This document shows positions 14,580 to 61,138 of a DNA stretch of 64,000 nucleotides, piece by piece. Below the pieces are notes generated by a model, which did no database searches, was not told where the DNA came from, and was given only the letters and a program-made list of their open reading frames with translations. The stretch covers positions 50,344 to 114,343 of the forward strand of contig CADADV010000006.1 in assembly GCA_902786815.1 (NCBI GenBank). Reading direction: 5' to 3'. The translations under genes were made by a program, and so were the position numbers. Within the stretch, counting starts at the first letter, position 1. Every line of letters begins with the position of its first letter. Origin of the DNA: an uncultured Eubacteriales bacterium. Its GTDB lineage: Bacteria; Bacillota; Clostridia; Peptostreptococcales; Anaerovoracaceae.

Positions 14580-15788
14580 TTACAGTCCGATCATGGTTCC
14601 GGCGAAGATGCCGTAGTAGTTGCCGAGGACGTAGCCCAGGGTCCCTACCAGGATGGCAGGCACGATGAGGCCGTTCCAGCCTTTGGCGATGGCCATGGCT
14701 GCGGCAGTGGTCGGTCCGCCGATGTTGGCGTTGGACGCGATGATGATCTCCTCCAGACCGAAACGGAAAAGCTTTCCGAACACGAAGGAGAACAGCATGT
14801 TCACGAACACGATGATCGCGCAGAACAATAGCAGCAGCGGCGCCTTTGTCACGATCATGTAGATCGACGCCGGCACGCCGATGACTGCGAAGAAGATGTG
14901 GATCAGATATGTGCCGATTTCCTGCGCGCCCGGCATGTCGCCGATCTGCTTCGGGAACAGGGTCGCCACCAGCATGGTCAGCGTGGTGATGATCAGATAC
15001 TTGTTCCCCAGCAGTCCGTTCAGAAGGGACAGCCCGAAGTTCGATGTGGGAATAACTCCCGCAAATACTTCGGCGATCTTAACGGACACTGCCACAATCA
15101 CAAGTGACAAAGCAACACATAATGCGATGTCTTTGAGTGAGATCTGCTTCGGCGTCCAGAATGTCGCTGCGCCTTTCACTTCGCCGTCCGCGCTCTGCAT
15201 CTCGATCTCGTCGATGATCGGGTGACGGTACGCTTTCAGGAAGAACTTCGATCCGGCTGCCGCGATCAGAGCGAAGAAATAGAGCGCCATCAGCAGGTTA
15301 TCTGCAACTACGGAGGAGGAAACCAGTTCCCCGCCCACGCTGTACGCGTCGGACATGGCGACCAGATTCACGCTGCCGCCTGTGTAGGTTCCGATCATCA
15401 TCGGGGTCACGAGACCCAGATCCGCGAAAGAACCCTTCAGCAGATTGTACGCTGCAATACCGCCGGCAACGGTCCCCAGCCCGCTGATCAGATAGATGAT
15501 GAGCAGACGTCCGCTCTCTCGGCCGATCCGCTTGATGTCTGCGTTGAACAGAAGCATCGGGATCGCCAGCGGGATGATATAATCCCACACGAAATCATAG
15601 GCCGGCGCGTCGAGCGGGATGATCCCCACGTTCGACAGGATCATGGCGCCGATCAGCGCCATTACGCAGCCTGTGATCTTCGATCCGATTTTTGTCTTTT
15701 GCTCCAGATAAACAGCCAGCGTTGCGATCGCCGCGAGGATCGCAAACAACGCCCATGTGTTTTCTGCGCTGATCAAAGTGTGTTCCAT
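14580..15788 (-). CDS. DUF819-family polytopic membrane protein
   Basis: 402 aa with about 11 TM segments. The N-terminus WALFAILAAIATLAVYLEQKTKIGSKITG ... IIPLAIPMLLFNADIKRI matches my recollection of DUF819. Confidence 0.8.
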   Translation of the reverse strand: MEHTLISAENTWALFAILAAIATLAVYLEQKTKIGSKITGCVMALIGAMILSNVGIIPLDAPAYDFVWDYIIPLAIPMLLFNADIKRIGRESGRLLIIYLISGLGTVAGGIAAYNLLKGSFADLGLVTPMMIGTYTGGSVNLVAMSDAYSVGGELVSSSVVADNLLMALYFFALIAAAGSKFFLKAYRHPIIDEIEMQSADGEVKGAATFWTPKQISLKDIALCVALSLVIVAVSVKIAEVFAGVIPTSNFGLSLLNGLLGNKYLIITTLTMLVATLFPKQIGDMPGAQEIGTYLIHIFFAVIGVPASIYMIVTKAPLLLLFCAIIVFVNMLFSFVFGKLFRFGLEEIIIASNANIGGPTTAAAMAIAKGWNGLIVPAILVGTLGYVLGNYYGIFAGTMIGL

Positions 15789-15812: not shown

Positions 15813-16796
15813 TTAGCCGATCTTTCCTTCGTCAATCATTTTCGCCAGTTCTTTCGCGAAATACGTGATGTACATGCCGGCTCCGGCACGGTACGCGCCG
15901 ACCGCCATCTCTCCGATGATTCTTTCTTCGTCGATCCAGCCGTTCATGGCAGCTGCCTTGACCATGGAGTACTCGCCGCTGACGCTGTATGTTGCAACCG
16001 GAATGTTAGTCGCGCTGACGACTCTCTCCAGCAGATCATAGAAAGCCATCGCCGGTTTGACGATCAGGAAGTCCGTTCCTTCCTCTACGTCGAGGAGCGC
16101 TTCCTTCATCGCTTCCCTTCCGTTGTGGTAATCCATCTGGTAGCTTTTGCGGTCGCCGAAGTGCGGTGCGGAATCCGCCGCGTCACGGAACGGCCCATAA
16201 AATGCGGATGCGAATTTCACTGCGTAGGACATGATCGGAATGTTCTTGAACCCGTCCTCGTCAAGTTTCTGACGGATCGCTGTAACGTGACCGTCCATCA
16301 TATCGGAAGGCGCCACGATGTCCGCGCCGGCTTCTGCCTGGGAGCTTGCGATTTCCGCCAGTTTCATCAGGGTCTTGTCATTGTCGACATATTCTCCGTC
16401 AAGGATCCCGCAGTGTCCGTGGGATGTGTACTCGCACATGCAGACGTCTGCGATGAACAGCATATCCGGGAAGTTCTTTTTGCCTTCCCTAAGCGCCCGC
16501 TGCACGATACCGTCATGGGCATAGGCCTGGCTGCCGCATTCGTCCTTGTGATCCGGAATGCCGAACAGCAGAACGTTGTTCACGCCCAGTTTCGCCGCTT
16601 CTTCCAGTGCATACGGAAACTGATCCACACTGTAACGGTACTGCCCCGGCATGGACGGAATCTCTTCCTTGATTCCGGTTCCGTCGATGGTAAAAATCGG
16701 GTAGATGAGAGACGCCTTGTCGACTCGTGTCTCCCGCACCATCTTTCTCATTGCTTCTGTTGTACGTAATCTCCTTGGTCTGTTGATCAGTTCCAT
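15813..16796 (-). CDS. hemB: Porphobilinogen synthase (ALA dehydratase), Zn type
   Basis: RPRRLR, the Cys-rich Zn site DVCMCEYTSHGHCG, and the active-site region VKPA. Confidence 0.97.
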   Translation of the reverse strand: MELINRPRRLRTTEAMRKMVRETRVDKASLIYPIFTIDGTGIKEEIPSMPGQYRYSVDQFPYALEEAAKLGVNNVLLFGIPDHKDECGSQAYAHDGIVQRALREGKKNFPDMLFIADVCMCEYTSHGHCGILDGEYVDNDKTLMKLAEIASSQAEAGADIVAPSDMMDGHVTAIRQKLDEDGFKNIPIMSYAVKFASAFYGPFRDAADSAPHFGDRKSYQMDYHNGREAMKEALLDVEEGTDFLIVKPAMAFYDLLERVVSATNIPVATYSVSGEYSMVKAAAMNGWIDEERIIGEMAVGAYRAGAGMYITYFAKELAKMIDEGKIG

Positions 16797-16800
16797 AATT

Positions 16801-18312
16801 CTATCTTCCTTTCATTGAACATTTCATTGATATCACCAGCTGAGTCAGGCTGTCCATAGTCGCCTCCTCAGAAATATATACTTCCATACCATGTGCACGT
16901 GCCTCGCGAGCTGTCTGTTTGCCGATGCAGGCAGCCCGTACAAGGCTAAAATCCAGCCCCGGGTTCCTGCTCACAAAGCCTCGCACTGTCGACGCGCTTG
17001 TGAACACGGCGCAGTCGATCTTGCCGCTTTCAAAGAGCGCCGCTTCATCGACGAGATCCTGCGATGCGTCAATCGTATCGTAGGTCTCAATGTCTGTGAC
17101 AGATGCTCCGGCGTGCTCCAGCTCTGCCACCAGCTGCCGGTTTCCAACAGCTGCACGCGGAATCAGAATGCGGTCATCGCTTCCGACCTGCTCCGCCAGT
17201 TCTTTTCCCAACGTCTCACCGTCATATACCGACGGCATAAAATCTACGAGGAGATTCTGCGCAGCGAGTTCCTTCGCGGTCCCTGTTCCGATGGCTGCGA
17301 TCCTGACGCCCGCCAGACACCGCACGTCACAGTTGCCCTTTCGCAGCACGTCGAAGAACACCCGCACGCCTGTCGGCGAAGTGAACACGAGCCAATCGTA
17401 TTCTCCAATCGAATCGAGCGCTTCCGTAAGTTCGCTCTGGTCCGCTCTTGCCACCGTCTCGATCGAAGGCAGTTCCAAAACTTCTGCGCCCATTTTCCGC
17501 AGGCGCGCCGCCATGCCGGAGATCATCCCCCGCGGACGGGTGACGATCACTCTGCTACCCGCAAGCGGCAGTTTCTCGTACCATGCAAAAGCATCCGCAA
17601 GGCTGCAGACTTTGCCGACGATGATGATAGCCGGTGTCTCAACGCCCTGCTTAGCCACCTCATCTGCCAGCGTGCCCACCGTGGCGACAATACGTTTCTG
17701 CCCCGCTGTCGTTCCCTGCTGCAGGACGGCAGCCGGTATATCCGGATCCATGCCTGCCTCCAGCAGTCCGCCGCAGATGAAGGACAGCCGCGCGATCCCC
17801 ATCAGGAACACCAGCGTCCCCTCCGTGCGGACCAGCGCCTCGAAATCGATATCCTCGTCGGAGCCCTTCCTTCTGTGCCCCGTGATGATATGCAGTGACG
17901 ATGTAAAATCCCTGTGTGTGACCGGGATCCCGTTATAGGCCGGCACCGCGATAGGCGATGTGATGCCCGGCACGATCTCATAAGGCACATCATGCTCTGC
18001 CAGAAGTTCCAGTTCTTCGCCGCCCCGTCCGAAGAGGAACGGGTCGCCTCCTTTCAGACGGACTACCTTCTTCCCCTTCTGCGCCTCCTCAAGCAAAAGC
18101 ACATCGATCTGTTCCTGGGGCATAGTGTGGTTCCCTGACCGCTTGCCGACGCTGATATACTCTGCTTCCTTCGGAAACAGCGAGAAGATCGAATCGCCGA
18201 TAAGGGCGTCATAAACAATCAGGTCCGCGTCTTTTATGATTTCCACTGCCTTGACAGTGAGAAGTCCCGGATCCCCGGGGCCGGCACCTACAAGCCATAC
18301 TTTTCCTGTCAT
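16801..18312 (-). CDS. cobA-hemD: Fused uroporphyrinogen-III C-methyltransferase / uroporphyrinogen-III synthase
   Basis: The N-terminal VWLVGAGPGDPGLLT is SAM-methyltransferase-like, and the C-terminal half is HemD-like. The preferred start is MTGKV at 18312, which forms a TAATG junction with the hemC stop. The track ORF extends to 18402. Confidence 0.92.
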   Translation of the reverse strand: MTGKVWLVGAGPGDPGLLTVKAVEIIKDADLIVYDALIGDSIFSLFPKEAEYISVGKRSGNHTMPQEQIDVLLLEEAQKGKKVVRLKGGDPFLFGRGGEELELLAEHDVPYEIVPGITSPIAVPAYNGIPVTHRDFTSSLHIITGHRRKGSDEDIDFEALVRTEGTLVFLMGIARLSFICGGLLEAGMDPDIPAAVLQQGTTAGQKRIVATVGTLADEVAKQGVETPAIIIVGKVCSLADAFAWYEKLPLAGSRVIVTRPRGMISGMAARLRKMGAEVLELPSIETVARADQSELTEALDSIGEYDWLVFTSPTGVRVFFDVLRKGNCDVRCLAGVRIAAIGTGTAKELAAQNLLVDFMPSVYDGETLGKELAEQVGSDDRILIPRAAVGNRQLVAELEHAGASVTDIETYDTIDASQDLVDEAALFESGKIDCAVFTSASTVRGFVSRNPGLDFSLVRAACIGKQTAREARAHGMEVYISEEATMDSLTQLVISMKCSMKGR

Positions 18313-19187
18313 TACTCGTACCGTCCCTTCATGATCTTCGCAAGCCGGATGCCCAGTTCCTCGGCCTCCTCCGGGTTTCCTGTGATCGATTCCCTGTGCC
18401 ACTTGCCCGTCGGATCGTCATAGTACAGTCCCTCGATCGTAAGTTCTTCGTCCCCACATACTGCAAATGCTGCAATGGGGGAGGAACATCCGCCGTCGAG
18501 CCAGCGGACAAAGGCACGCTCCGCCAGAACTTCCCGTTCTGTCTTCTTATCGTTGAAACCATCAGCCCAGCTGTAATCCTCCCCGCGTCTTCCCTGCACA
18601 GCCAGAACGCCCTGTCCTGCTGCCGGAAGGATCTCGGACGGTTCGAAATATTTGTAGATGCGTCCCTCCAGACCGAGACGGACCAGCCCTGCGGCTGCCA
18701 GCACCAGTGCGCCGTACTGTCCTTCATCAAGTTTTCTGAGCCGCGTCTGCACGTTTCCTCTGACGCTTTCCACCCTCGCCTGGGGATAAAGTTTTTCGAT
18801 CTGGATCCTCCTGCGGAAGCTGGAACTTCCGATTGGTTTGCTGAAGTCGATCTCATCTGCACCCTCCGGCAGGACCAGCACGTCCCTGGGATCCTCCCGT
18901 CCGGAGAACGCAATGACCGGCAGTTCTTCAGACACCTCCATCGGCAGATCCTTCAGCGAGTGGACGGAAATGTCGCTGCGTCCGTCCAGCAGCGCATGAT
19001 CCAGTTCCTTCACAAAGAGGCCTTTGCCGCCGATTTTATCCAGCGTCTTGTTCAGGATCTTATCGCCTGTTGTCTTCATTTTGACGAGCTCGTACTCCAT
19101 GCCGATCCCTGTCAGGTAATCTCCGACCATCTCACTCTGGATGACTGCGAGCACGCTCTCTCTGGTTCCGATTCTTACCGGTTTCAT
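18312..19187 (-). CDS. hemC: Hydroxymethylbilane synthase (porphobilinogen deaminase)
   Basis: IGTRESVLAVIQSE, GKGLFVKELD, HSLKDLP, and a C-terminal Cys in GGCSSPIAA. Confidence 0.95.
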   Translation of the reverse strand: MKPVRIGTRESVLAVIQSEMVGDYLTGIGMEYELVKMKTTGDKILNKTLDKIGGKGLFVKELDHALLDGRSDISVHSLKDLPMEVSEELPVIAFSGREDPRDVLVLPEGADEIDFSKPIGSSSFRRRIQIEKLYPQARVESVRGNVQTRLRKLDEGQYGALVLAAAGLVRLGLEGRIYKYFEPSEILPAAGQGVLAVQGRRGEDYSWADGFNDKKTEREVLAERAFVRWLDGGCSSPIAAFAVCGDEELTIEGLYYDDPTGKWHRESITGNPEEAEELGIRLAKIMKGRYE

Positions 19188-19200: not shown

Positions 19201-19668
19201 TCATATCCCTTCCTCTGTCAGTATTTCCTGAATGCGTTCCCGGACCCTTTTGGCTTTTGCGTGATCCTTGCCAGATGCCGTGATGCCGATGACGGTATCT
19301 CCCTGCCGGACGATGCCCGGGAAGTAGAAGTCGCACAGATTCTTATCGCTGGACACATTGACCAAAATGCCTTTCCGGCGGCACATCAGAGCGATCTGCT
19401 CATTCAGTTCCTCATCATCCGTCGCAACGAAAACAAGATCTTTCTCTTCCAGATCTTCGTCATCAAACTCCCGCATGATCCAGCTGACCTCCCCTTCTTC
19501 TGTGAGGGCGAGGATGCTGCCGTCCGCTTCCGGCGCCACGATGGTGATCCGCTGGATGAACGGCGCAAGAGCGTTGATTCTCCGAGCAGCGATCTTGCCG
19601 CCTCCGACGAAGAGGATCTCCTTCTCGCTGATGTCCACAAATAGTGGGAAATACTGTCTTTCTGTCAT
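19201..19668 (-). CDS. sirC: Precorrin-2 dehydrogenase / sirohydrochlorin ferrochelatase (CysG N-terminal type)
   Basis: FPLFVDISEKEILFVGGGKIAARRI is an NAD-binding motif. The length is 155 aa. Confidence 0.82.
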   Translation of the reverse strand: MTERQYFPLFVDISEKEILFVGGGKIAARRINALAPFIQRITIVAPEADGSILALTEEGEVSWIMREFDDEDLEEKDLVFVATDDEELNEQIALMCRRKGILVNVSSDKNLCDFYFPGIVRQGDTVIGITASGKDHAKAKRVRERIQEILTEEGI

Positions 19669-20795
19669 TGTCTCTTCCTCCTCTTCAGCACCAGATTCAG
19701 GATACCGCCGCCGATGATGATGAGCAGCGCGATATAGATCACTCGCTTCGCCGCTTCCTGCGGTACCTTCGTCACGGAGTTGATTGTGTCTTTATAAAAT
19801 GTCAGTTCATATTCGATCTCCACCGGATCGCCCATAGCTGTCGTATCCGCAATGACACGGATCGGCTGATCGAACAGCGCTACCGGGATCGTGAATGTGG
19901 AGTTGCCTCCGTCTTTGGATTCGTTTTCGTATTTGATGCCGTTGATCTTCATGTAGTCGTAGTGGGAGCTGCTCCAGAGAAGTCTGGCGTACGCCTTGCC
20001 GCCCCTGACGATGAACCAGGTCGGCGAGCTGACCGAAGCTCTTCCCGAGCCGCCTATCATATTGACCTCGATGGAATAGGTGTCGTCCTCCATGTCTATC
20101 TCCGCCGGAATCAGAAACGATGCATTGCTCTCTGCTTTTTCTTTGCCTTCTTCCGCCGGATTCTGGTCCGCAGCGGAGCCTTTGCCCTCGTCATACTGCT
20201 CTACAGCCTTGTCGATCAGGTCGTAATCAGGCAGTTTGATCTTGAGCGCCTTCTCAGGCAGGCCGGACGCATCGATCAGGATGTCCCTGTCGTACCACTG
20301 TTTTTCTTTTTTGCTGAAGGCTGCGCAGGCGATCGGCGCGTTCAGCGCCTCCACCGGGATGGTGAAACTGCCCCGCGCATCCTTTTCGTCTGCGAAGATA
20401 TAGTCCTTTTCCGGAGCCTTTGCTGCGTCAACTGCTTTGCCCATGTATACGCACTTGTAGCTGGTGCTGTCGATGGTCATGACCGCCGTCATCCGGCCGC
20501 CCTTGACCGTCAGTTTGCAGGCGTAGATGCTGAAAAAGCTGGAGCTGCTCTCCATGTCGACATCGTAGGTGCCGTCCTCGATGCTCCTACCGTAGACCGG
20601 CGTCATGCCGTACTTACCTACGTCCTTGGTTTCGGCAGTTTCTGCGCCGGAAGCAACATCCTCGTAGCCTTCGGCGGCCCATGTATGATCCAAGCATGCC
20701 GGGCAGAACATTATCATGGACACTGCAAGCAGCGCAGCGATAAAGACAGCCGCGATGCTCCCCCCTATGGAATTGTGTCCTCTGCATTCAGTCAT
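19665..20795 (-). CDS. Extracytoplasmic protein with an N-terminal signal/anchor, two unknown beta-rich domains and a C-terminal TM anchor. It is a paralog of 28997..29833.
   Basis: The N-terminus is hydrophobic (IAAVFIAALLAVSMIMF). The C-terminus is RVIYIALLIIIGGGILNLVLKRRKRQ. Domain 2 (WSSSHYDYMKINGIKYE...FTIPVALFDQPIRVIADTTAMGDPVEIEYELTF) aligns with WSSPHYDYMIVDGEKYE...FEIPVSVMNEPFTVIADTTAMSEPHEIEYKLTV in the plus-strand lipoprotein. Confidence 0.7.
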   Translation of the reverse strand: MTECRGHNSIGGSIAAVFIAALLAVSMIMFCPACLDHTWAAEGYEDVASGAETAETKDVGKYGMTPVYGRSIEDGTYDVDMESSSSFFSIYACKLTVKGGRMTAVMTIDSTSYKCVYMGKAVDAAKAPEKDYIFADEKDARGSFTIPVEALNAPIACAAFSKKEKQWYDRDILIDASGLPEKALKIKLPDYDLIDKAVEQYDEGKGSAADQNPAEEGKEKAESNASFLIPAEIDMEDDTYSIEVNMIGGSGRASVSSPTWFIVRGGKAYARLLWSSSHYDYMKINGIKYENESKDGGNSTFTIPVALFDQPIRVIADTTAMGDPVEIEYELTFYKDTINSVTKVPQEAAKRVIYIALLIIIGGGILNLVLKRRKRQ

Positions 20796-20816: not shown

Positions 20817-21590
20817 CTAAATCTTCTCTGCATGCTCCGCGTGCTCCGCGAACATGTCCTGTATCTCTTCGTATTCTCCCAAGCCTGCCAGGATCACTTC
20901 TGTTGTGTATCCCACTGCTTCCAACTGTTTCTGCCAGGAATCCGGTGCATCCCCTGCCAGATCGTTGACGGCGTGGTCCCCTGCCACGATCATCAGCGGC
21001 GCGAGGATGACCTTCCTGTATCCTGACTGCTCCAGCAGCGCCTTCGCGTCCTCGAATGCCGGCGTTCCTTCGACAGTCCCCACGAACACATTGTCCGCAC
21101 CTGCAGAGGCGAGGCTGTCCTGCAGCTGTTCGTAGACCGGCACCGGATGTTTTTCCGATCCGTGTCCCATCAGAAGCAGGGCTTCGTCACCGCGGCAAAG
21201 AGTCCGCATGATCTGCGCCACGCGCGCCCTGTCCTCTTCGTTGTCCAGCAGCGGACGTCCCACGGCGATACGCTCGAACCGGTCCGCGAACGTTCTGACG
21301 ATTCCCAGCATGCGCCGGTTCTCGTAGCCGTCCGACAGGTGGGTCGGCTGAACGATCACATCCGTGACGCCGGCATCGGCCAGTTTTTCCAGCGCTTCCT
21401 CCGGCGTATCGATCGCCAGCCCTTCTGCCTTTGCAACTTTCCTTATAATAAAGCTGCTGGTCCACGCACGCCGCACATCCCTGTCCGGGAAACGTTCTGC
21501 CAGTTTCCGCTCGATCGCACCGATCGTACGCTCGCGCGTCTGCGCATATGAAGTTCCGAAGCTGATGACCAGCAATGCTTTTTCTTTCAT
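20817..21590 (-). CDS. cbiK: Sirohydrochlorin cobaltochelatase (anaerobic pathway), cytoplasmic
   Basis: ALLVISFGTS, VIVQPTHLSDGYE, LLLMGHGSEKH, and VAGDHAVNDLAGD. No signal peptide is present. Confidence 0.92.
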   Translation of the reverse strand: MKEKALLVISFGTSYAQTRERTIGAIERKLAERFPDRDVRRAWTSSFIIRKVAKAEGLAIDTPEEALEKLADAGVTDVIVQPTHLSDGYENRRMLGIVRTFADRFERIAVGRPLLDNEEDRARVAQIMRTLCRGDEALLLMGHGSEKHPVPVYEQLQDSLASAGADNVFVGTVEGTPAFEDAKALLEQSGYRKVILAPLMIVAGDHAVNDLAGDAPDSWQKQLEAVGYTTEVILAGLGEYEEIQDMFAEHAEHAEKI

Positions 21591-21592
21591 TG

Positions 21593-22324
21593 TTATAAGT
21601 TCTTCTTTTTATATACAAAGGCCACGGAGATGGCCGAGAATACTGCCAGGTACAAAAGCAGCACGATCCAACCGAACACGCCTGTCGTTCCTCCTGCTGA
21701 TACGCTCCGGATCATTTCGCATGCCTGTGACAGGGGCAGAAGTTCCACGAACTGCCGGATCCCCATGGGCATCTGCTCCGTGGAGAAGAAGGTGTTGCAC
21801 AGGAAGGACATGGGCATGATGATATACGATGTGAAACGCGGTGCGTCCGTGTAGCTCTTCGCCAGGAACGACAGCACCAGCGCGATCGTCGAGAACACGA
21901 GCCCGTTCAGGAACATGACCAGGAAGGACCAGCCGTTGAAGGTCAGATCCGCCGCGATGGGCATCGTAATGAGCAGGATGATGCATGCTGCGTACATGCC
22001 CCGCAGGCTCCCGCCGATGACCTGCCCCAGGATGAACTGCCACAGCGGCGTCGGCGAGACCATAACCTGATCGAGGGCCTTCTCGTACAGCCGCTGCACG
22101 CTCATGTTCTGTGCCACGGCGCTGAAGCTTCCGGTCATGGTGGACATGGCTACGATGCCGGGGACCAGGAAGTTCAGGTACGGCTCCCCGTGGGAGGTGG
22201 TCTGGATCCCGAGTCCGAACACGATAAGATACATCAGCGGTGTGATAGTCGCCGCCAATGTGATCTTATAGAAGTCCCTCCGGAACTCTCTCCATTTTTC
22301 CCACAATACTGCAATGATTCCCAT
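21593..22324 (-). CDS. ABC-2-type transporter permease
   Basis: Six predicted TM segments of ABC-2 style. The start is uncertain: ATG 22324 (MGIIAVLWEKW) or the track start 22393, which would overlap the ATPase gene by 44 nt. Confidence 0.78.
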   Translation of the reverse strand: MGIIAVLWEKWREFRRDFYKITLAATITPLMYLIVFGLGIQTTSHGEPYLNFLVPGIVAMSTMTGSFSAVAQNMSVQRLYEKALDQVMVSPTPLWQFILGQVIGGSLRGMYAACIILLITMPIAADLTFNGWSFLVMFLNGLVFSTIALVLSFLAKSYTDAPRFTSYIIMPMSFLCNTFFSTEQMPMGIRQFVELLPLSQACEMIRSVSAGGTTGVFGWIVLLLYLAVFSAISVAFVYKKKNL

Positions 22325-22349
22325 ATATGAAACGCCTTTGCTTTCGCCT

Positions 22350-23192
22350 CTATTTTCCTCCAAGCCCTCTGCCGATCCGGTAGATGAACACATCCTCCAG
22401 CGTAGTGTTTCGCATGGACGCTTCCTTGTCGGATCCGCGCAGGTACTCGATGGCTTCTTCCTTGCTGTGGAAGTGGGAGGAATGCAAAGTCTCCTCCGCT
22501 GTCTCGTCCACTGTATACCGGCCGAGTTCCTCGATCAGATTCGCCGGCGTGTCGATCGTATTCAGGCTGCCCTTGTTGATGAGCGCGATGCGCTCGCACA
22601 GGGACTGGGCCTCTTCAATGTAGTGCGTCGTCAGGAGGATCGTAATGCCCTCTGCGTGGAGCTGCCGCAGCAGGTTCCACATCTGCCGTCTGGAGATGGC
22701 GTCCATCCCGGCTGTCGGCTCATCGAGCAGCAGGATCTGCGGCTCTGTCATAAGGGCGCGGCAAATCATGAGCTTCCGCTTCATGCCGCCCGAAAGGTGG
22801 CGCACCACCCTGTGCCTGTACTCACTCAGGCCGGCAAATTCCAGAAGTTCTGCGCTTTTCTGTTTGATGACTTTCTTCGGCAGATAATACAGCCTGCCCT
22901 GATACTCCATCACTTCATCCATGGTCATATCCTGACGCATGGAGTACTCCTGGGTGATAACGCTCAGTTTGCTCTTTTCGACGGAGGCCTTTCGGTCCAG
23001 TTTCTTCCCGTCGATGAAGATCTGCCCTTCCGTCGGCAGCAGAACAGTGGAGAGCATGCTGATGGTCGTGGTCTTGCCGGCGCCGTTGGGTCCGAGCAGA
23101 CCGAAGAACTCTCCTGTTTCGATGGTCATATTCAGGTGATCCACTGCCGTGAAGTCACCGAATTTTTTAGTAACATCTTTTAATTCGATCAT
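22350..23192 (-). CDS. ABC transporter ATP-binding protein (ABC-2/DrrA-like)
   Basis: Walker A is GPNGAGKTT, the signature is LSGGMKRKL and Walker B is LLLDEPTAGMD. Confidence 0.9.
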   Translation of the reverse strand: MIELKDVTKKFGDFTAVDHLNMTIETGEFFGLLGPNGAGKTTTISMLSTVLLPTEGQIFIDGKKLDRKASVEKSKLSVITQEYSMRQDMTMDEVMEYQGRLYYLPKKVIKQKSAELLEFAGLSEYRHRVVRHLSGGMKRKLMICRALMTEPQILLLDEPTAGMDAISRRQMWNLLRQLHAEGITILLTTHYIEEAQSLCERIALINKGSLNTIDTPANLIEELGRYTVDETAEETLHSSHFHSKEEAIEYLRGSDKEASMRNTTLEDVFIYRIGRGLGGK

Positions 23193-23226: not shown

Positions 23227-23925
23227 TTACAGATCCCTTTCGTCTTCTTTGGCGATGATCAGGGAGAAGTACCCCGCTTCATCCGGGATCTCGTCCACGC
23301 CTCTGTAGATTTTCTCTCCGGGCATGCCGCAGTTTTCGACGACATTCACATCCCTGCCGCTTGCCCTGAGGATCTCCTTGACCTCAGCCATGTGGCTGCC
23401 GGATTTCATGAGCACGTAGTTGCCCGGCAGGCTCAGGTCATCGCCCAGCTTGTGCAGCGCCGGCATGATGTGGAGCGGTTCGTTCCACTCGCACAGAGGA
23501 ATGTTCACGCGGGCCGCCGCCGCGCAGAAGGATGTGATGCCCGGCACCAGTTCTGTCTCATAGCCGTCCTCTTCCATGATGGCCTGCAGGTAGGTGAAGG
23601 TACAGTAAACGGTCGAGTCTCCCAGTGTCAGGTAGACGACATTCTTTCCCTCATCCAGGTATTTCTCGATGATCTGCGCCCCCGCCTTGTGCTGCCGGCG
23701 GATCTCATCCTTGTCCATCTTCATGGGCATGTACACCGGGACCAGTTCCTTCTCTGCCAGCTCCGGCACCGCCGCACAGGCGATCTTGTATGCGACTGTT
23801 TCCTTCGGTTCCTTGCCCGGGAAACAGAACACGTCGTTTTCTTTGATCAGTTCTACTGCTCGCAGCGTCATGAGTTTCGGATCTCCCGGACCCACGCCGA
23901 CGCCGTATGCTTTTCCTTTTGCCAT
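23227..23925 (-). CDS. cbiL: Precorrin-2 / cobalt-factor II C20-methyltransferase
   Basis: AYGVGVGPGDPKLMTLRA ... TLGDSTVYCTF. The preferred start is MAKGKAY at 23925, with GAGGAAGAAGG immediately upstream. Confidence 0.9.
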   Translation of the reverse strand: MAKGKAYGVGVGPGDPKLMTLRAVELIKENDVFCFPGKEPKETVAYKIACAAVPELAEKELVPVYMPMKMDKDEIRRQHKAGAQIIEKYLDEGKNVVYLTLGDSTVYCTFTYLQAIMEEDGYETELVPGITSFCAAAARVNIPLCEWNEPLHIMPALHKLGDDLSLPGNYVLMKSGSHMAEVKEILRASGRDVNVVENCGMPGEKIYRGVDEIPDEAGYFSLIIAKEDERDL

Positions 23926-23959
23926 CCTTCTTCCTCGTTTCTTCCTAAACACGACAAAA

Positions 23960-24085
23960 ACGACCGCCCCATCTCAGAAGACGGTATTTGATTCTGACAG
24001 GTACCCCGACTTGGTTCTTATTGATTTCACGGTTGCTGAGACACAGTGCCGGATTCGCACCGGCTTCCCCTGCATCAGAATGACT
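23960..24085 (-). promoter_or_regulatory. Cobalamin riboswitch no. 2 (short form lacking the peripheral extension), leader of the cbiL operon
   Basis: The minus strand reads GGGGAAGCCGGTGCGAATCCGGCACTGTGTCTCAGCAACCGTGAAATCAATAAGAACCAAGTCGGGGTACCTGTCAGAATC. It has the conserved GGTG.GAATCC core and a B12-box-like AAGTCGGGGTACCTGTCAG. A T-rich tract (GGTCGTTTTTGTCG) precedes the cbiL RBS. Confidence 0.8.
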
Positions 24086-24103
24086 CTTTTATTCTTGTTG
24101 TCT

Positions 24104-33798: not shown

Positions 33799-34478
33799 TA
33801 TTTCTGCCATCCTCTCTTCATCGGGTCAACCATGTCTACAGCCGAGTACAGCAACGCATTGCAGATCGACGCCGCCACGTTGCTGCCGCCTTTTCTTCCA
33901 AAGGCAACAATTGCCGGGATATCATGCTCTTTGCAGATCTCAAAAATCTCTTCCTTGCTCTCCACGACATTGACGAATCCTACCGGCACGCCGATTACCA
34001 AGGCCGGTTTCAGACCGTCCCGGATCATCTCTGACAGAGCGATCAGCGCCGTGGGCGCGTTGCCGGAAACGAAGATCCCGTTCGGATACTCCGCTGCGCC
34101 TCTTCGCATGGATGCGTAGGCACGCGTCGTCCCTTCCTCCTTTGCCTGCTGCATGATCGCAGCATCGGCCATGTAGCAGATAGCCTGCGAAGACAGTTTC
34201 TGAAGAGACGGTTTGCTGATTCCTGAAAGAGCCATGTTCGTATCGGTGATGAACGTGCAGCCGCCCTTCTGCAAAGCCTCGACGGCGCGCTTGACCGCGC
34301 CTTCCGTGAATTTCAGATTCGTTCCGTAATCGAAGTCCGCGCTCGTATGGATGACGCGTTTCACCACCGTCAGATTCTCCTGCGGGACCTCGATACCGCG
34401 CTCCGCAAGCTCTGCCTCGATGATCCGCATGCTTTCTTTTTCGATGTCCGCCGGGCGGACGTATTCATAAGTACTCAT
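33798..34478 (-). CDS. cbiC: Cobalt-precorrin-8 methylmutase
   Basis: IEKESMRIIE...VKRVIHTSADFDY ... GNAPTAL matches the CbiC/CobH signature. Confidence 0.93.
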   Translation of the reverse strand: MSTYEYVRPADIEKESMRIIEAELAERGIEVPQENLTVVKRVIHTSADFDYGTNLKFTEGAVKRAVEALQKGGCTFITDTNMALSGISKPSLQKLSSQAICYMADAAIMQQAKEEGTTRAYASMRRGAAEYPNGIFVSGNAPTALIALSEMIRDGLKPALVIGVPVGFVNVVESKEEIFEICKEHDIPAIVAFGRKGGSNVAASICNALLYSAVDMVDPMKRGWQK

Positions 34479-46594: not shown

Positions 46595-47632
46595 TCATCG
46601 ATATATCCCGTACTTGATCTTCACCCGTTCGAGTTTGCGGATAATCAAGTCACCGAAGAGGAAAATGAAGATGGCCGCCGTCGCTGCATGTACCGCATCG
46701 TATGGAGCACCGGTGATGTACAGGAGCCGCAGTGTGTTCAGACTGATAGGGTCTCCGCCCGGCATGATCGAGGCGTTGACCATGGCGCAAACATTCATGA
46801 TCCCGCCATAGACGATAAAGGTCACAAAGAATGTGAACAGAGCCATGGTAAGTCCATCTGCCGGAAGCCGCTTTCGCTGCAAAAGCACCCCTGCCAGAAG
46901 TCCTCCTGCGCCGAAGATGTACAGGCGCCATCCGATAAAGCCGCTGTTCTCACCTGAACCCGGCCAGATGAGCCAGCACACATAGGCCAGTGCGATGGCG
47001 AACAGGATGCAGATCACCGGTCCCATTACAACACGGAAACTTCTGGAATTCACTTTCATCAGAGGTCCCGGCAGTTTCCGGGTGCCGGCGTTGATCTTTT
47101 CTGACGCCAGCTGCCGGTACTTTCGCAGATCCTCCGGATCGACTTTGTTGAACGCCAGTCCGGCGAGAAATCCCAGCAGCCCCCAGCAGAACATCTGCCA
47201 CGGTGTCCATGGTCCCTGCCCAATGTAGAAATTACAGACCAGTCTGGCCAGCGCACCCACCAAAAACCCCGCTTCCGGGCCCAGGGCGATGCCGGAGATG
47301 ATCACCATCGCCGTGCCTGCCTGGATCGGGACCGTCACATGAAAGAACAACTGCAGAACGACCGTCAAAGCTGCCATCATAGCGATCAGAACGATTTCCC
47401 GCGCCTTTGGTTTGCGCGCTTCGAACACCATGAAGAACGGGATCAGGGTGTAGATCACCACCAAGAGGCTGATGATCATATACATATTCTGATCCAGCAC
47501 AACAATGCCGAACACCATGGTCGCAGGAATCAGAACAAAGATCATAAAGGACGCCATCAGTGCACGCTTCCGTCGGAAGACTTCATACTGCGTGGCCTGC
47601 AGCGCGGTCCGGGAAGCACGCGGCGCTGTCAT
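46595..47632 (-). CDS. ECF-transporter S-component-like membrane protein, atypically large (about 345 aa, about 10 TM segments)
   Basis: Last gene of the ECF module. The preferred start is MTAPRA at 47632 (ATGA junction with the ATPase stop). The first roughly 6 TM segments resemble an S component, and 4 extra TM segments follow a basic loop. Confidence 0.65.
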   Translation of the reverse strand: MTAPRASRTALQATQYEVFRRKRALMASFMIFVLIPATMVFGIVVLDQNMYMIISLLVVIYTLIPFFMVFEARKPKAREIVLIAMMAALTVVLQLFFHVTVPIQAGTAMVIISGIALGPEAGFLVGALARLVCNFYIGQGPWTPWQMFCWGLLGFLAGLAFNKVDPEDLRKYRQLASEKINAGTRKLPGPLMKVNSRSFRVVMGPVICILFAIALAYVCWLIWPGSGENSGFIGWRLYIFGAGGLLAGVLLQRKRLPADGLTMALFTFFVTFIVYGGIMNVCAMVNASIMPGGDPISLNTLRLLYITGAPYDAVHAATAAIFIFLFGDLIIRKLERVKIKYGIYR

Positions 47633-49341
47633 CGGATCCTGCGGATGCATGCCGCCACCTCCTCCCAAGTGATCGCGCCGGGGAAGTATTCCCGCGCGAT
47701 CCGGTTGGCTGTCGTCGTATAGAAGTTGTTGCCCGTGAAGAAGCTCTCCGCTTCGCCTTCCGAAATAATGCCACCGTCAAAGAACATGGCGCAGCGGTCT
47801 GCGTACGCAGCGCAGAATTCAATGTCGTGGGAGACCATCAGGATGGTGATTCCCTGTGCGGCGAGATCTTTCAGGATCTCTGCCAGCGTGATCTTAAAGA
47901 AAGGATCCAACCCCTTGGTCGGCTCATCCAGAAGCAAAATCTCCGGTTCCAGCAGAAGCACTTTGCCAAGCGCCAGCCGCTGCTGCTCTCCGCCGGACAG
48001 ATCGTATGGATGGACCTGGCGGAGATGTTCGATCTGCAGCAGCTGCAGCATGGACTCTACTGCGGCTACTTTTTCCTCATCTGTTTTCTCTGCGTAGTGC
48101 AGTGCCTCCAGCAGATCGTCCTCCACCGTGATCTCTGAGAACAGAGCCTGCGGATTCTGTGGCAGCATCGCCGCCCTGCCGCTGATCTGCACCGATCCCC
48201 GCCGCGGCTTCAGGATTCCCTGCAAAACCTTCAGGAGGGTGCTTTTGCCGACGCCGTTTCCACCCAGCAGAGAGTACAATGTGCCGCGCTCCACCTGCAG
48301 GTTCAGATCCCGCAGCACATCCGGCGCGTCCTTTCTGTAACGGAACCACAGGTCCTTTGTCCGGATCGCGAGATCCGTGTCCGCTCTGCGCGGTGCAGGC
48401 GGGCGCGTTTCTGTTTTCTCTTCCCGCACTTCACGCAGGATCTGCCCGGCAGTCTGCACGTCAAGTTCTGCGGTCGCGGCTTCTTCCTTCAGCCAGAGTC
48501 TGCCCTCACGGACCGTCAGCGGACCAGCCTCGCCGGCATATGTCTCCGCTGTTTCCGGATGCTCCTCCCTGTCCGTCATGACAGTATGATAAATCTTCGT
48601 CACGGCGGGCAGTCCGTAAAACATCGGGTGCTGCAGCTGCGCGAGCTTCGCGCCGATGCTCCGCGGAGCATCACAGGAGAGCACGCCTCCATGATCCATG
48701 ACCACAACACGGTCTGCCATGGTAAACGCCTCTTCCAGGCGGTGCTCCGAAAGGATGACGGTTACACCCAGATCACGGTTGATCCTGCGCACCGTCTGCA
48801 GAAATTCCGACGCCGCGATTGGGTCCAGTTGTGAGGTGGGCTCGTCCAGCACCAAGAGCCTTGGCTGCATCACCATGACGGATGCCAGATTCAGAAGCTG
48901 CTTCTGTCCTCCGGACAATTCGCTCACATCCTTTCGGAACCAGCTCTGGATATCAAAATAACTGGCCATTTCCGCCACGCGGCGGCGGATGGTCGCATTA
49001 TCCAGGCCCAGACTCTCCAGCCCGAAGGCCAGTTCGTGCCAAACCTTATCCGTCACGATCTGGTTGTCCGGATTTTGCTGTACGAATCCGATCTCCGATG
49101 CGCTCCTGCGGTCATCCAACGACTCCACCGGTTCCCCGCAATAGAGAACCTCACCTGTCAGTTCCCCGTATGGAATGAGGTTCTTCTTCATCTGGCGCAG
49201 CAAGGTGGTTTTGCCGCAGCCGGACTTGCCGCATACCACGAGGAATTCGGATTCAGACACCGAAAAACTGACCTCCGACAAGGCCGGACGGTCCGCCAGC
49301 GGATAGGTGAAGCTTACATTGTCAAATCGGATCATTTCCAT
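47629..49341 (-). CDS. ECF transporter duplicated ATPase (EcfA1-EcfA2 fusion type)
   Basis: Two complete ABC cassettes: GKSGCGKTT/LSGGQKQ/LVLDEPTSQLD and GGNGVGKST/LSGGEQQR/LLLDEPTKGLD. Confidence 0.9.
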   Translation of the reverse strand: MEMIRFDNVSFTYPLADRPALSEVSFSVSESEFLVVCGKSGCGKTTLLRQMKKNLIPYGELTGEVLYCGEPVESLDDRRSASEIGFVQQNPDNQIVTDKVWHELAFGLESLGLDNATIRRRVAEMASYFDIQSWFRKDVSELSGGQKQLLNLASVMVMQPRLLVLDEPTSQLDPIAASEFLQTVRRINRDLGVTVILSEHRLEEAFTMADRVVVMDHGGVLSCDAPRSIGAKLAQLQHPMFYGLPAVTKIYHTVMTDREEHPETAETYAGEAGPLTVREGRLWLKEEAATAELDVQTAGQILREVREEKTETRPPAPRRADTDLAIRTKDLWFRYRKDAPDVLRDLNLQVERGTLYSLLGGNGVGKSTLLKVLQGILKPRRGSVQISGRAAMLPQNPQALFSEITVEDDLLEALHYAEKTDEEKVAAVESMLQLLQIEHLRQVHPYDLSGGEQQRLALGKVLLLEPEILLLDEPTKGLDPFFKITLAEILKDLAAQGITILMVSHDIEFCAAYADRCAMFFDGGIISEGEAESFFTGNNFYTTTANRIAREYFPGAITWEEVAACIRRIR

Positions 49342-49372
49342 CTATCTATGCTCTCCTACGATCTATGCTCTC

Positions 49373-50293
49373 CTACTGTTCTCCATTCTCCAGTCGCTCC
49401 CACCGGAGCTCCCCGGCGATGTCCATGATCAGCGGTGTTGCCGCCATCAGGATAAATGCGATCAACGTTACGGCTGTCATCATGTCGAAAGGATGCAGTT
49501 TGTAGACGGGATAGAACCAGGCTTCTGTCTTATGCAGGGCGCATCCGGCGATGCACAGCGCGCCCAGCACGCAAAGCCAGACCATCATCGCGGTATCCCG
49601 GCGCGAAAAACGGTACAGATTGAAGCTGGTACGTCCCCGCAGTCCGTATCCCCGCGCCTCCATGGAATCCGCGCTTTCGATGGAGGACTCCAAAGACCAG
49701 GAAATCAGGATCGACGCGTTCTTGCCGGCCTGCCGCAAGCGCATTTTAAGCGGCGGCTTCGTATCTTCTACTTTGCCCCGTCCCAGACACCGCTGTCCCA
49801 TGCTGATCTCGCCGTACCGGGCGCGCAGCAGCGGAATGTAGCGAAAGATCATGGACAGGGTCAGGCCCAGCACCGGCGCAGCCCGGCCGAAGAGAAAAAT
49901 CAGTTTCTCGGCGGTCATGACGCAGTTGAAGCTGGTGAACCAGATGAGGACGGAACTGAGCATGACGGCTGCCGAAATCCCGTAAATCAGAGCTTCCGCC
50001 GTGATCCGGTTGCCGTGGATAAAGCACAGAACCGTATCGCCGTCGTGGACGAACAGCACGTTGATCAGCGCCATCACCACTACGATCCAGAAGACGAACA
50101 CCAGATTCAGACGGAGAGCCGCCCTGCCTTTGAGCAAAAGAGAGTAAAACCACGACAGGATAAACGTGGCCGCAAGAAACCAGGGCGACATACTGAACAT
50201 GGTGATTCCGATCACCAGCGCGTAGTACACCAGATTGACCCATGGATGGTATTCCGCAAATTCCGTGCGCTCTCCGATTCCTTCCCTGAACAT
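49373..50293 (-). CDS. ECF transporter T component (CbiQ/EcfT family)
   Basis: A polytopic protein with the conserved ARG motifs (MEARGY, and a preceding SLESSIESA helix). The preferred start is MFREG at 50293 (TAATG junction). Confidence 0.85.
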   Translation of the reverse strand: MFREGIGERTEFAEYHPWVNLVYYALVIGITMFSMSPWFLAATFILSWFYSLLLKGRAALRLNLVFVFWIVVVMALINVLFVHDGDTVLCFIHGNRITAEALIYGISAAVMLSSVLIWFTSFNCVMTAEKLIFLFGRAAPVLGLTLSMIFRYIPLLRARYGEISMGQRCLGRGKVEDTKPPLKMRLRQAGKNASILISWSLESSIESADSMEARGYGLRGRTSFNLYRFSRRDTAMMVWLCVLGALCIAGCALHKTEAWFYPVYKLHPFDMMTAVTLIAFILMAATPLIMDIAGELRWERLENGEQ

Positions 50294-50832
50294 TATTTGC
50301 CGCTTCCCCCGCCGGCTTCGCTCTTTGTGTAATCCACTACGTAGACCCAACGGATCTGATCGCCGTCCTTCAGTTCGTATTTCGAACATCCGACATCGGG
50401 CATTTCATCATTCACATAATAGGTCCAGCCGCTCCGTTTGCCTGCGTCCATTTCATACAGATGCCCGATGCCTTCCACATACCTGGATCGGTATACGGAA
50501 TCCTCGCTGCTCTCCATCTGGATGTCCCGGTCACGGCATGTGTTGTACAGGCAGTCGTAGACCGTCTCCCCCTCCGCGAACTTGTACGGAGTCGGCGCGA
50601 GGATCACGCCGTCCGATGGAATGTAATCCCGGATGGATTCCTTCTGCAGCTGGTCCATCTGCTGCGACAGGTCGCTGCAGTCCACCGAAATGGTCACCGT
50701 CCCGGCACTGCCGCCGCCCTGTTTCACGACAAGGCCCGCGAACCCAAGCGCCGCCAGCACCACAAGCACCACGATGATGATAATCGACCGCGCTCTCTTT
50801 TTCTTTGTTTTTTTCAGAAGCTGCTGGCTCAT
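50293..50832 (-). CDS. Membrane-anchored DUF4430 (transcobalamin-like C-terminal domain) protein
   Basis: The preferred start is MSQQLLKKTKKKRARSIIIIVVLVVLAALGFAG, an N-terminal anchor. The C-terminus SGWTYYVNDEMPDVGCSKYELKDGDQIRWVYV is the DUF4430 hallmark (GW.Y.VN...Y.L.DGD.I). Confidence 0.8.
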   Translation of the reverse strand: MSQQLLKKTKKKRARSIIIIVVLVVLAALGFAGLVVKQGGGSAGTVTISVDCSDLSQQMDQLQKESIRDYIPSDGVILAPTPYKFAEGETVYDCLYNTCRDRDIQMESSEDSVYRSRYVEGIGHLYEMDAGKRSGWTYYVNDEMPDVGCSKYELKDGDQIRWVYVVDYTKSEAGGGSGK

Positions 50833-54443: not shown

Positions 54444-54467
54444 CTCCGCTTACATTCTTTGTCTTTA

Positions 54468-55685: not shown

Positions 55686-56662
55686 AACAGTTTCTCTCCC
55701 TGCGCCGCCAGCAGCGCACTGTCAATAGCACAGAGCGCCTGCTCTGTGGCCATCACATCCATTTCATCTCCATGCAGATGGGAGAACCCATCTGCGCATC
55801 TGTACAGCATCAACCCATCAAGAAGGGTGCTGCCCTTCGCAAAATCCTCCGCTTTCGCGGGATCCTCTCCGAGTGCCGCTACTGCCATGACCACCTGGGA
55901 GGTGGATTCGCTGTTGCCGTAGTCTCCGCCCGGATGCTGCTGGGTGGCAAGCCACCCCTTTGCGGCTGCCAGCGCATCTGCGATCTGCTGATTTTCCCCT
56001 GCAAAGGGCGCCAGGGCCTGCATGGCCATGGCTGTGATATCCACATCCGCAGTCTGTCCGTCATAAGTGATGCTGCCGTCCTCCAGCTGCATTCCGAGGA
56101 TATCTTCGATATATGTTTCCCGGGCTTTCAGTTCTCTCCCGCAGCAGGCCGCTGCGTTCAGCGCCCAGATCTCGGCGTTGATTCCCTGCGCTTTTACAGT
56201 TTCCGTATCCTCCTGCTGCGCCAGAAGATCGAAGCCTTCCACATCCTGCGGATCGCCGCCGATCATCTGCAGGGCGATGGCTGCTTTTGCATTATCTGTA
56301 GGCCGATCCGGATCCAGCACGCCGTCTGCCCGCTTCACCGCGAGACGCAAGGATTCTTCGTACTGCATGAACAGAGACTGCGCCTCTGCTTCCTTCCCCA
56401 TGGAAGACCCGGCGATGCCGATGATGCTCCATTCATTACCTGGTCCGACCTCTTCTCCTGAAAGCAGCCGGATCAGCTGGACTGCGGTTTCCTTTTCGAC
56501 CTGCGCCAGATCTGCAGTCTGCGCTGCCGCAGCCTGCTCCGTATTCCCGGATGCAGGATCAGGACTGTCTGTACTGTCATTTCCTCCGCAGCCTGCCAAA
56601 AGCAGCAGCAATACGCTCAGGCAGAGTGCCGCGATCCAGTTTTTCGTTTGCTTTCTTTTCAT
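55682..56662 (-). CDS. Lipoprotein with a prenyltransferase/terpene-cyclase-like alpha/alpha-toroid domain
   Basis: The preferred start is MKRKQTKNWIAALCLSVLLLLLAGCGG (lipobox) at 56662. Periodic helical-hairpin repeats carry W/G-rich turns (EWSIIGIA, NAEIWALNA, DITAMAMQAL, TSQVVMAVAAL, MATEQALCAI). Confidence 0.72.
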   Translation of the reverse strand: MKRKQTKNWIAALCLSVLLLLLAGCGGNDSTDSPDPASGNTEQAAAAQTADLAQVEKETAVQLIRLLSGEEVGPGNEWSIIGIAGSSMGKEAEAQSLFMQYEESLRLAVKRADGVLDPDRPTDNAKAAIALQMIGGDPQDVEGFDLLAQQEDTETVKAQGINAEIWALNAAACCGRELKARETYIEDILGMQLEDGSITYDGQTADVDITAMAMQALAPFAGENQQIADALAAAKGWLATQQHPGGDYGNSESTSQVVMAVAALGEDPAKAEDFAKGSTLLDGLMLYRCADGFSHLHGDEMDVMATEQALCAIDSALLAAQGEKLF

Positions 56663-59862: not shown

Positions 59863-59887
59863 CCCTCCTGTTTCCTAACTGCGTTCT

Positions 59888-60823: not shown

Positions 60824-60840
60824 ACTCTGTCTCCTATGTC

Positions 60841-61130: not shown

Positions 61131-61138
61131 TCATGATT

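Follow-up and report, generated by a model that had tools for sequence, protein, structure and literature searches.

Tandem NEAT-like surface proteins encoded beside CbiK chelatases in cobalamin-riboswitch operons are candidates for corrinoid capture by Gram-positive gut bacteria

Why would a bacterium encode the same kind of surface protein twice, each copy directly downstream of a CbiK-type chelatase gene and under a cobalamin riboswitch? The question is raised by a stretch of 64,000 nucleotides (the window, positions 50,344 to 114,343 of contig CADADV010000006.1) from an uncultured Eubacteriales bacterium of the Anaerovoracaceae, where the two copies, here called W1 and W2, lie in two neighboring units of B12-related genes. 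According to their structure models, W1 and W2 consist of tandem, strongly diverged NEAT-fold domains. Considering their sequences together with their genomic context, we lean, with moderate confidence, towards a role in which they would form an Isd-like surface relay for a corrinoid or another cobalt-tetrapyrrole, not for haem, feeding a BtuFCD-type importer.

Fold, anchoring and conserved residues of W1 and W2

The two proteins and their parts map as follows (aa, amino acids).

19665..20795, minus strand: W1, 376 aa, membrane-anchored tandem NEAT-like surface protein (open reading frame, Pfam, AlphaFold2, Foldseek)
20709..20768, minus strand: W1 N-terminal signal/anchor helix, aa 10-29, a helix in the model, hydrophobic AAVFIAALLAVSMIMF
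20271..20573, minus strand: W1 domain D1, aa 75-175, NEAT-like, with a DGTY start, a WYD end and modelled strands
19776..20084, minus strand: W1 domain D2, aa 238-340, NEAT-like, with a GGSG lip, WSSSHYDYM and DTTAM..PVEIEY
19671..19763, minus strand: W1 C-terminal transmembrane anchor and basic tail, aa 345-375, a helix in the model
28997..29833, plus strand: W2, 278 aa, tandem NEAT-like lipoprotein
29099-29461, plus strand: W2 domain D1
29492-29821, plus strand: W2 domain D2

Judged by their sequences, W1 and W2 are paralogues whose similarity is far above chance, as BLASTP aligned them at 33% identity spanning both domains (E 1e-32) with the blocks WSSxHYDYM, FxIPV and VIADTTAM..P.EIEY.LT all inside the alignment. 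An earlier reading made from the letters alone (the sequence-only reading) had already given the two proteins one architecture with these shared blocks, W1 a signal or anchor plus a C-terminal transmembrane segment, and W2 the status of a lipoprotein. The alignment agrees with the first of these proposals; the helices at aa 10-29 and aa 345-375 of W1, the latter followed by an RRKRQ tail, and the lipobox LTG|C of W2 agree with the other two.

Searching PDB sequences with the single W1 and W2 sequences (phmmer) gave nothing useful, and therefore profiles and fold comparison were needed. The Pfam NEAT family (PF05031) matched D2 of W1 (aa 236-336; 26.2 bits, E 1.2e-5) and D2 of W2 (24.5 bits, E 3.8e-5), both below the gathering threshold of 32.8 bits, and D1 of either protein had no Pfam match. 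A profile of 121 family members found IsdX2-NEAT5 (PDB 4h8p, 4h8q) over D1, if weakly (E 0.014), and the N-terminal half of a D2-only profile aligned to IsdX1, with the D2 lip opposite the 3-10 helix lip of IsdX1. D1 is moreover homologous to D2 (HHalign probability 97.9%, E 4.8e-13). The AlphaFold2 models, with predicted local distance difference test (pLDDT) values of 85.4 for W2 and 84.5 for W1, have eight strands in each domain; the termini of the W1 model are helical, and a further helix separates its D1 from D2, as in IsdH and IsdB.

Foldseek comparison with the PDB showed that NEAT proteins are 10/10 of the top matches for each model and, at E <= 0.001, 21/22 of the matches for W1 and 11/11 for W2 (32/33 together), each listed NEAT match having a probability of 1.00. 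The tandem-NEAT receptors IsdH-N2N3 and IsdB were found at E 2e-6 to 2e-8 and are the top matches of W1 (E 2e-8), while single NEAT domains gave TM-scores, normalised to the target, of 0.6-0.69. The models thus have the eight-stranded immunoglobulin-like (Ig-like) beta-sandwich that defines the NEAT fold, whereas the sequence hallmarks of the family, namely a score above gathering, the YxxxY and SxxxxY motifs and sortase anchoring, are lacking. A resemblance to NEAT domains had been suspected from the letters, and the sub-threshold Pfam matches (E 1e-5), the D1 profile match to IsdX2-NEAT5 and the Foldseek top matches all speak for it; the accompanying statement that the domain could be assigned to no family did not hold, as many homologues have precomputed PF05031 matches. 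Some of these homologues are named 'iron transporter' by NCBI.

Conserved positions were compared over 177 D2 instances, with W2 numbering. The near-universal residues were G179, G180, G182, S207, P244, T258, M261 and Y269, with M261 found in 177/177 instances, Y269 in 175/177 and His265 in 137/177. The haem motif YxxxY is replaced in D2 by HxxxY (W2 type) or VxxxY (W1 type), a Tyr four residues before the invariant one occurring in 9/177 domains, and D1 keeps the second Tyr alone, as WYD (xxxxWYD); the absence of the canonical motif had been noticed correctly from the sequence. The SxxxxY 3-10 helix lip is missing in D2 as well, where a GG[ST]G[KR] loop, about five residues shorter, stands opposite SSRMNRY of IsdX1, and the lip region of D1 reads SSS[MF]F.

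Conserved His, Tyr and Met residues had also been pointed out as possible ligands of a tetrapyrrole metal. Of these, the His of HYDYM is not conserved over the whole family. From the alignments, the informative residues are instead an invariant Met and Tyr together with a subfamily-specific His or Val on the beta7-beta8 hairpin, which in canonical NEAT domains is the haem-holding site. When D2 was placed on IsdX2-NEAT5 by HHalign (probability 40%), the NEAT Tyr residues fell elsewhere than in an alignment made by hand around the conserved Tyr; considering this low-confidence alignment and the ambiguity that it leaves about the axial position, we restrict the claim to M261, H265 and Y269 lying on the beta7-beta8 hairpin.

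The two types differ consistently in anchoring and at this position. Among 120 W2-type proteins, 113 have a lipobox, and His precedes the invariant Tyr by four residues in 104/105 of those with the motif located. All 120 W1-type proteins end in a transmembrane segment plus basic tail, and 98/100 of those with the motif located have Val, Leu or Ile at the same place. LPXTG was found in none of these 240 homologues (120 of each type).

Operon context, partner genes and riboswitch control

W2 belongs to a short unit on which the genes of a BtuFCD-like transporter converge.

27266-27294, plus strand: promoter-like site of the secreted-cbiK/W2 unit, 11/12 match with TG extension
27299-27485, plus strand: cobalamin riboswitch of this unit, RF00174, 109.9 bits
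27642..28871, plus strand: secreted CbiK-like lipoprotein, lipobox VTG|C, complete chelatase core, Pfam CbiK 213.6 bits
29856..29893, plus strand: intrinsic terminator, 16-bp stem and T run, closing the W2 unit
30360..31526, minus strand: BtuD-like ATPase (Pfam)
31523..32617, minus strand: BtuC-like FecCD permease (Pfam)
32644..33810, minus strand: BtuF-like lipoprotein, binding protein (Pfam)

The promoter-like site and the terminator frame a clean two-gene unit, secreted cbiK (likely start, the ATG at 27642) followed by W2. In the window the BtuF-, BtuC- and BtuD-like genes converge on W2, but in most genomes they immediately follow the W2 orthologue.

The family is large. A word-indexed search gave at least 8000 clusters at 90% identity, all 8000 scored candidates being significant, and an exhaustive profile search gave 2660 clusters at 50% identity. 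Matches came from at least 597 species genomes (one genome per species), from taxa including Anaerovoracaceae, Mogibacterium and Lachnospiraceae, the last with Blautia, Roseburia, Agathobacter and Fusicatenibacter. Among the best 150 of the 2660 clusters, 98 have the D1-D2 architecture and the remaining ones are arrays of the type (D1)n-D2, in which D1 occurs up to eight times.

Gene neighbors were counted by tblastn in the best 80 genome loci, picked by similarity to W2. Results showed that a gene for a secreted-type CbiK is directly upstream in 78/80 loci, the remaining two being truncated, and that BtuF-, BtuC- and BtuD-like genes are directly downstream on the same strand in 71-73/80. A cobalamin-class riboswitch on the same strand precedes the secreted cbiK in 47/47 genome loci having the upstream region (Rfam gathering thresholds). 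In a second, independent sample, taken from human-gut metagenomes, the gene order recurs and the riboswitch was present in 11/12 loci tested, which brings the total to 58/59 testable loci. The sequence-only reading had asked whether the association with cbiK and RF00174 extends to other genomes; it does, and it is both stronger and more general than the window suggested.

Gene fusions connect the same partners. A BtuF-like (Peripla_BP_2) region lies C-terminal to the NEAT-like module in 53 of the best 150 clusters, and 9/10 inspected junctions consist of D2, a low-complexity linker and the mature binding protein and lack an internal signal peptide; P0302 was discarded as a true fusion, its internal signal peptide making it look like a two-gene read-through. 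CbiK is fused to a NEAT-like part in two clusters among the best 150. Metagenome matches that looked like such fusions were mostly adjacent genes, a single reading frame being found in 1/56 metagenome and 1/71 genome loci (2/127).

The best PDB matches of the secreted CbiK are FetB of Porphyromonas gingivalis (9b86, E 6e-28), then Salmonella CbiK (1qgo) and the Desulfovibrio vulgaris chelatase (2xvx). Its GHG, VEG and GDHA motifs, aligned to the His/Glu/His metal site of 1qgo, are invariant in 114/114 secreted-type orthologues, so that the protein encoded at 27642..28871 has both the CbiK fold and the metal-binding His/Glu/His. It is not the canonical enzyme, as its NCBIfam equivalog score of 148 lies below the cut-off of 400. 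Metal insertion into tetrapyrroles has been reported for FetB, a surface homologue of CbiK (PMC13065792). The segment at 27642-27990 encodes, after the lipobox, about 85 aa of N-terminal extension that is acidic and helical, has two Cys (…ECAALIEAIQV…QCEAAKAAYDALTDEQKE…) and is missing in the cytoplasmic CbiK.

For the transporter, the best NCBIfam family of the permease is BtuC, with a score under the cut-off, and that of the ATPase is the corrinoid ABC (ATP-binding cassette) ATPase, also under the cut-off and of the archaeal type PRK09536 rather than E. coli BtuD. The BtuF-like protein gave no clue to its cargo as a single sequence, with neither a PDB nor an NCBIfam match, and its profile had one sole PDB match, Lmo2184 (5joq, E 1e-7). 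The BtuD-like ATPase (30360-31526) carries a C-terminal extension of about 130 aa. In two related loci, L084 and L085, the first gene encodes an ABC ATPase of 394 aa that carries a PF27219 (MJ0874) domain.

W1 lies in the second unit, on the minus strand, among genes of early tetrapyrrole synthesis.

24132-24104, minus strand: promoter-like site
23979..24094, minus strand: cobalamin riboswitch, RF00174, 38.4 bits
23985-23963, minus strand: terminator-like stem
23227..23952, minus strand: cbiL-type tetrapyrrole methylase, first gene of the unit, Pfam TP_methylase 163 bits
22350..23192, minus strand: DrrA-type ABC ATPase (Pfam ABC_tran; NCBIfam DrrA/DrrB/NodIJ-like)
21593..22393, minus strand: ABC-2 permease (Pfam ABC2_membrane; NCBIfam DrrA/DrrB/NodIJ-like)
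20817..21590, minus strand: cbiK, cytoplasmic sirohydrochlorin cobaltochelatase with no signal peptide, Pfam CbiK 266 bits, PDB 1qgo E 5e-51
19201..19668, minus strand: sirC, directly downstream of W1 (Pfam NAD_binding_7)
18312..19187, minus strand: hemC (Pfam)
16801..18402, minus strand: cobA-hemD fusion (Pfam)
15813..16796, minus strand: hemB (Pfam)

The order is therefore riboswitch, cbiL, ABC ATPase, ABC-2 permease, cbiK, W1, sirC, hemC, cobA/hemD and hemB, with 21 nucleotides between cbiK (20817..21590) and W1 downstream of it. The ABC ATPase and the ABC-2 permease form an exporter-type pair whose position inside the operon is kept in relatives. Rfam found four cobalamin riboswitches in the window, and two of them (23979-24094 and 27299-27485) head the W1 and W2 units. 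The placement of both copies in B12-riboswitch units, with W1 between a signal-less cbiK and sirC and W2 after a secreted CbiK-like gene, had been read correctly from the letters, and the neighbors are now identified by Pfam. A cbiMNQO-type cobalt importer was not identified in the window, which has one energy-coupling factor (ECF) system, of unassigned specificity, in its third riboswitch operon.

Relatives of W1 have all these genes in one co-directional operon, in the order secreted cbiK, NEAT-like lipoprotein gene, cbiL, ABC ATPase and ABC-2 permease, continuing with cbiK, the membrane-anchored NEAT-like gene, sirC (or a hemA-sirC fusion), hemC, cobA/hemD and hemB. The two divergent units of the window are thus a rearranged version of a single operon. 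Between them lies a clostripain-family (Peptidase_C11) gene (24401..27067, minus strand, 888 aa), whose product has a Lys/Glu-rich N-terminus and a membrane segment; as the contiguous operon of the relatives lacks it, this gene marks a rearrangement or an insertion. In Roseburia zhanii (locus L049), cbiP and cobT follow the secreted-cbiK/NEAT-like/btuFCD unit.

Other features of these loci are recorded here. A reading frame of 149 aa (29914-30363, minus strand) overlaps the stop codon of the BtuD-like gene by 4 nucleotides, which makes it the probable last member of the co-transcribed cob/btu operon, and converges on the W2 terminator. At the end of the riboswitch-controlled operon, hemB is followed by a gene for a DUF819 membrane protein (14580-15788 of the window, minus strand; 13038-14249 of L083; 13042-14250 of L084), which is a conserved member of the B12 regulon in the window and its relatives. 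A variant module occupies 3783-9277 of L152, to which the loci L150-L159, L162 and L164 are similar, and encodes a CbiK-like lipoprotein with a twin-arginine translocation (Tat) signal, a D1-only lipoprotein (211 aa), a D2-BtuF-like fusion lipoprotein (524 aa) and then BtuC- and BtuD-like proteins; the Tat signal suggests that this chelatase is exported folded.

The third cobalamin-riboswitch operon of the window (46595-61132, minus strand; riboswitch 60926-61132) encodes a MoxR-type AAA ATPase, a protein with a transglutaminase core, two proteins that match no Pfam family, a DUF4430 protein (54468-55685) and a protein of 1204 aa (50829-54443) that combines beta-propeller (PQQ_2-like), cadherin-like and fn3 domains. 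It also encodes an ECF set, whose parts are a T component, a fused double ATPase and an S component of unusual length, 357 aa. This operon appears to be another surface system for corrinoid capture in the same genome, different from the proposed W1/W2 one. Another ECF set (fused double ATPase, S component, CbiQ-like T component) stands immediately upstream of the riboswitch in R. zhanii (693-4102 of L049), and downstream of the operon in L084/L085 (14672-17137) a protein of more than 1891 aa carries LRR_5, Big_3 and DUF4430 domains, being another putative B12-binding surface protein adjoining the module.

Proposed function and its alternatives

Our reading of W1 and W2 as a corrinoid relay is drawn from the NEAT fold, the surface anchoring, the riboswitch, the synteny with CbiK and BtuFCD, the gene fusions and the best families of the permease and the ATPase, BtuC and corrinoid ATPase. 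From these we infer which ligand is bound, in which direction it moves and what each domain does. At low intracellular adenosylcobalamin, the riboswitch would permit expression, and both the NEAT-like protein and the secreted CbiK lipoprotein would bind the macrocycle at the cell surface. D2 is the probable ligand-binding domain, given its invariant Gly-rich lip and its invariant Met and Tyr, to which the lipoprotein type adds a His, while D1 probably serves for docking or as a spacer, as the N-terminal NEAT domain does in IsdH and IsdB. The cargo would then pass to the BtuF-like lipoprotein and enter through the BtuCD-like transporter. As far as gene content and sequence can tell, the W2-type protein is a strong candidate for the capture of a B12-like molecule by Gram-positive gut bacteria.

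Several points weigh against this proposal. To our knowledge, the NEAT fold has so far been found only as a binder of haem or haemoproteins; the solved structure nearest to the secreted CbiK is the haem-binding FetB; and the gene of Lmo2184, matched by the BtuF-like profile, is part of the Listeria NEAT/haem locus. The family matches of the transporter are all under curated cut-offs. Part of the synteny over the 80 loci reflects shared descent, as the loci were picked by W2 similarity, and the L152 group of loci gave no riboswitch even at permissive thresholds. In addition, corrinoid binding alone would not require the strictly conserved chelatase site, which is a hint of extracellular metal chemistry, and a pure uptake model leaves unexplained why W1 adjoins an exporter-type ABC-2 pair.

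The last two points are what an extracellular cycle of cobalt chelation would account for. In such a cycle an early metal-free tetrapyrrole, for example sirohydrochlorin, would be exported via the ABC-2 pair and held by W1, whose presumed axial site is aliphatic; the secreted CbiK would insert scarce Co2+; W2, with His at this site, would take the cobalt product, and the BtuFCD-like importer would return it at the CbiL step, the tetrapyrrole acting in effect as a cobalt-scavenging carrier. This is consistent with the His-Glu-His metal site kept in all 114 secreted CbiKs, with metal insertion by the nearest solved relative, FetB (PMC13065792), with an ancestral operon of the window's lineage uniting the sirohydrochlorin branch, the exporter and both NEAT-like types, with the split between His in the lipoprotein type and Val/Leu/Ile in the membrane-anchored type, and with no cbiMNQO-type importer having been identified in the window. 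On the other hand, most loci, those of Lachnospiraceae, have neither the ABC-2 exporter nor a W1-type protein and therefore no evident source of metal-free macrocycle, the ABC-2 pair has no assigned substrate, a cobalt transporter may lie beyond the window, and the 'axial' position maps ambiguously. We also know of no precedent for exported sirohydrochlorin. We thus regard this cycle as unlikely, and as slightly less likely still its broader form, in which gut and rumen Firmicutes would perform the first cobalt insertion of B12 synthesis outside the cell in a 'cobaltophore' cycle, with the W1 type specialised for the metal-free macrocycle and the W2 type for the cobalt-loaded one.

Ordinary haem or iron acquisition, in which divergent NEAT haemophore receptors would feed a haem importer like IsdEF, with the secreted CbiK acting on haem as FetB/IhtB or the periplasmic CbiK of Desulfovibrio do, appears improbable to us. 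It fits the Foldseek assignment, the 'iron transporter' names, the Lmo2184 and FetB matches and the YxxxY-like motif retained in a few D2 domains, but a cobalamin riboswitch and not iron regulation precedes nearly all testable units, which share operons with cbiL, cbiK, sirC and hem genes or with cbiP and cobT; YxxxY and SxxxxY are missing in most members, and the permease and ATPase are nearest to BtuC and the corrinoid ATPase. Just as improbable is a scaffold binding no ligand, the NEAT-like domains being Ig-like spacers or docking modules by which the BtuF-like protein and the secreted CbiK would be tethered or extended through the cell wall. It would be in line with the large, stalk-like proteins in which as many as eight D1 repeats precede a single D2 and a BtuF-like part, and with IsdH and IsdB, whose N-terminal NEAT domains bind protein and not haem. 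However, the invariant S207, T258, M261 and Y269 and the Gly-rich lip of D2 fall on canonical NEAT pocket elements, which is unusual for a spacer, and the D1-D2 pair is kept even in minimal lipoproteins. The corrinoid relay remains the reading that we prefer.

In Bacteroides, the counterpart surface lipoproteins decide competitive fitness. For Gram-positive bacteria, surface cobamide capture was described as 'entirely uncharacterized' in a September 2026 review (PMC13616437), and in the literature on NEAT, cobalamin/corrinoid, CbiK, BtuF, BtuG and FetB we found no paper describing the W1/W2 family or the module. The module of riboswitch, secreted CbiK, NEAT-like lipoprotein and BtuFCD is therefore a concrete, widespread and easily testable candidate, rumen Anaerovoracaceae included. 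If the proposal is true, the NEAT fold, so far haem-only, would extend to the world of B12, and a cobalt chelatase predicted to be catalytically intact would stand outside the cell, with possible extracellular metal chemistry on tetrapyrroles. The practical stakes are the cobalt and B12 supply of ruminants and cross-feeding in the human gut.

Comparison with known systems

The closest parallel is the Isd/NEAT relay (IsdH/IsdB; IsdC to IsdE to IsdF; IsdX1/X2 of Bacillus anthracis; Hbp1/2 and Lmo2184 of Listeria), with which W1 and W2 have in common the beta-sandwich fold, tandem domains with, in W1, a helical linker, surface anchoring, and a class-III binding protein, FecCD permease and ATPase encoded alongside (in 71-73/80 genome loci and most metagenome loci). 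They differ in scoring under the Pfam NEAT gathering threshold, in a D2 with a short GGxG lip and [H/V]xxxY plus an invariant Met, and in anchoring by a lipobox or a C-terminal transmembrane segment instead of LPXTG and sortase. Their units are controlled by cobalamin riboswitches amid B12 genes rather than regulated by iron, Fur boxes not having been searched, and the W2-type units add a secreted CbiK partner.

A functional parallel is offered by BtuG, a beta-propeller, and by BtuH and BtuJ of Bacteroides. W1 and W2 lack homology to BtuG, BtuH, BtuJ or DUF4430 as far as Pfam and NCBIfam matches and the listed top 50 Foldseek PDB matches go. The folds are unrelated, BtuH having a novel globular and Ig-like domains and BtuJ being a jellyroll; the Bacteroides proteins act at a Gram-negative outer membrane with BtuB, and their B12 binding is proven, whereas that of W1 and W2 is proposed. 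Similarly to W1 and W2, they are surface proteins, in this case lipoproteins, encoded beside a transporter in B12-regulated uptake loci (PMC8941943; bioRxiv 10.1101/2025.07.01.662609; PMC13616437). That B12-binding lipoproteins work as surface relays is established for Bacteroides (PMC8941943; bioRxiv 10.1101/2025.07.01.662609), and by analogy W1 and W2 may have the same role of capture and hand-over.

As for the chelatase, the secreted CbiK shares the full CbiK core and the conserved catalytic motifs with FetB/IhtB of P. gingivalis (9b86) and the periplasmic CbiK of D. vulgaris (2xvx), and it differs from both by its B12 riboswitch, its constant association with a NEAT-like protein and usual association with btuFCD, and its extra N-terminal helical extension of about 85 aa. 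The CobN-like BtuS/HmuS of the btu and hmu loci of Bacteroidetes also represent a chelatase homologue within a B12-related locus of tetrapyrrole uptake (PMC6460266). They belong to the CobN and not the CbiK class, are periplasmic proteins of Gram-negative bacteria and are implicated in the removal of iron from haem.

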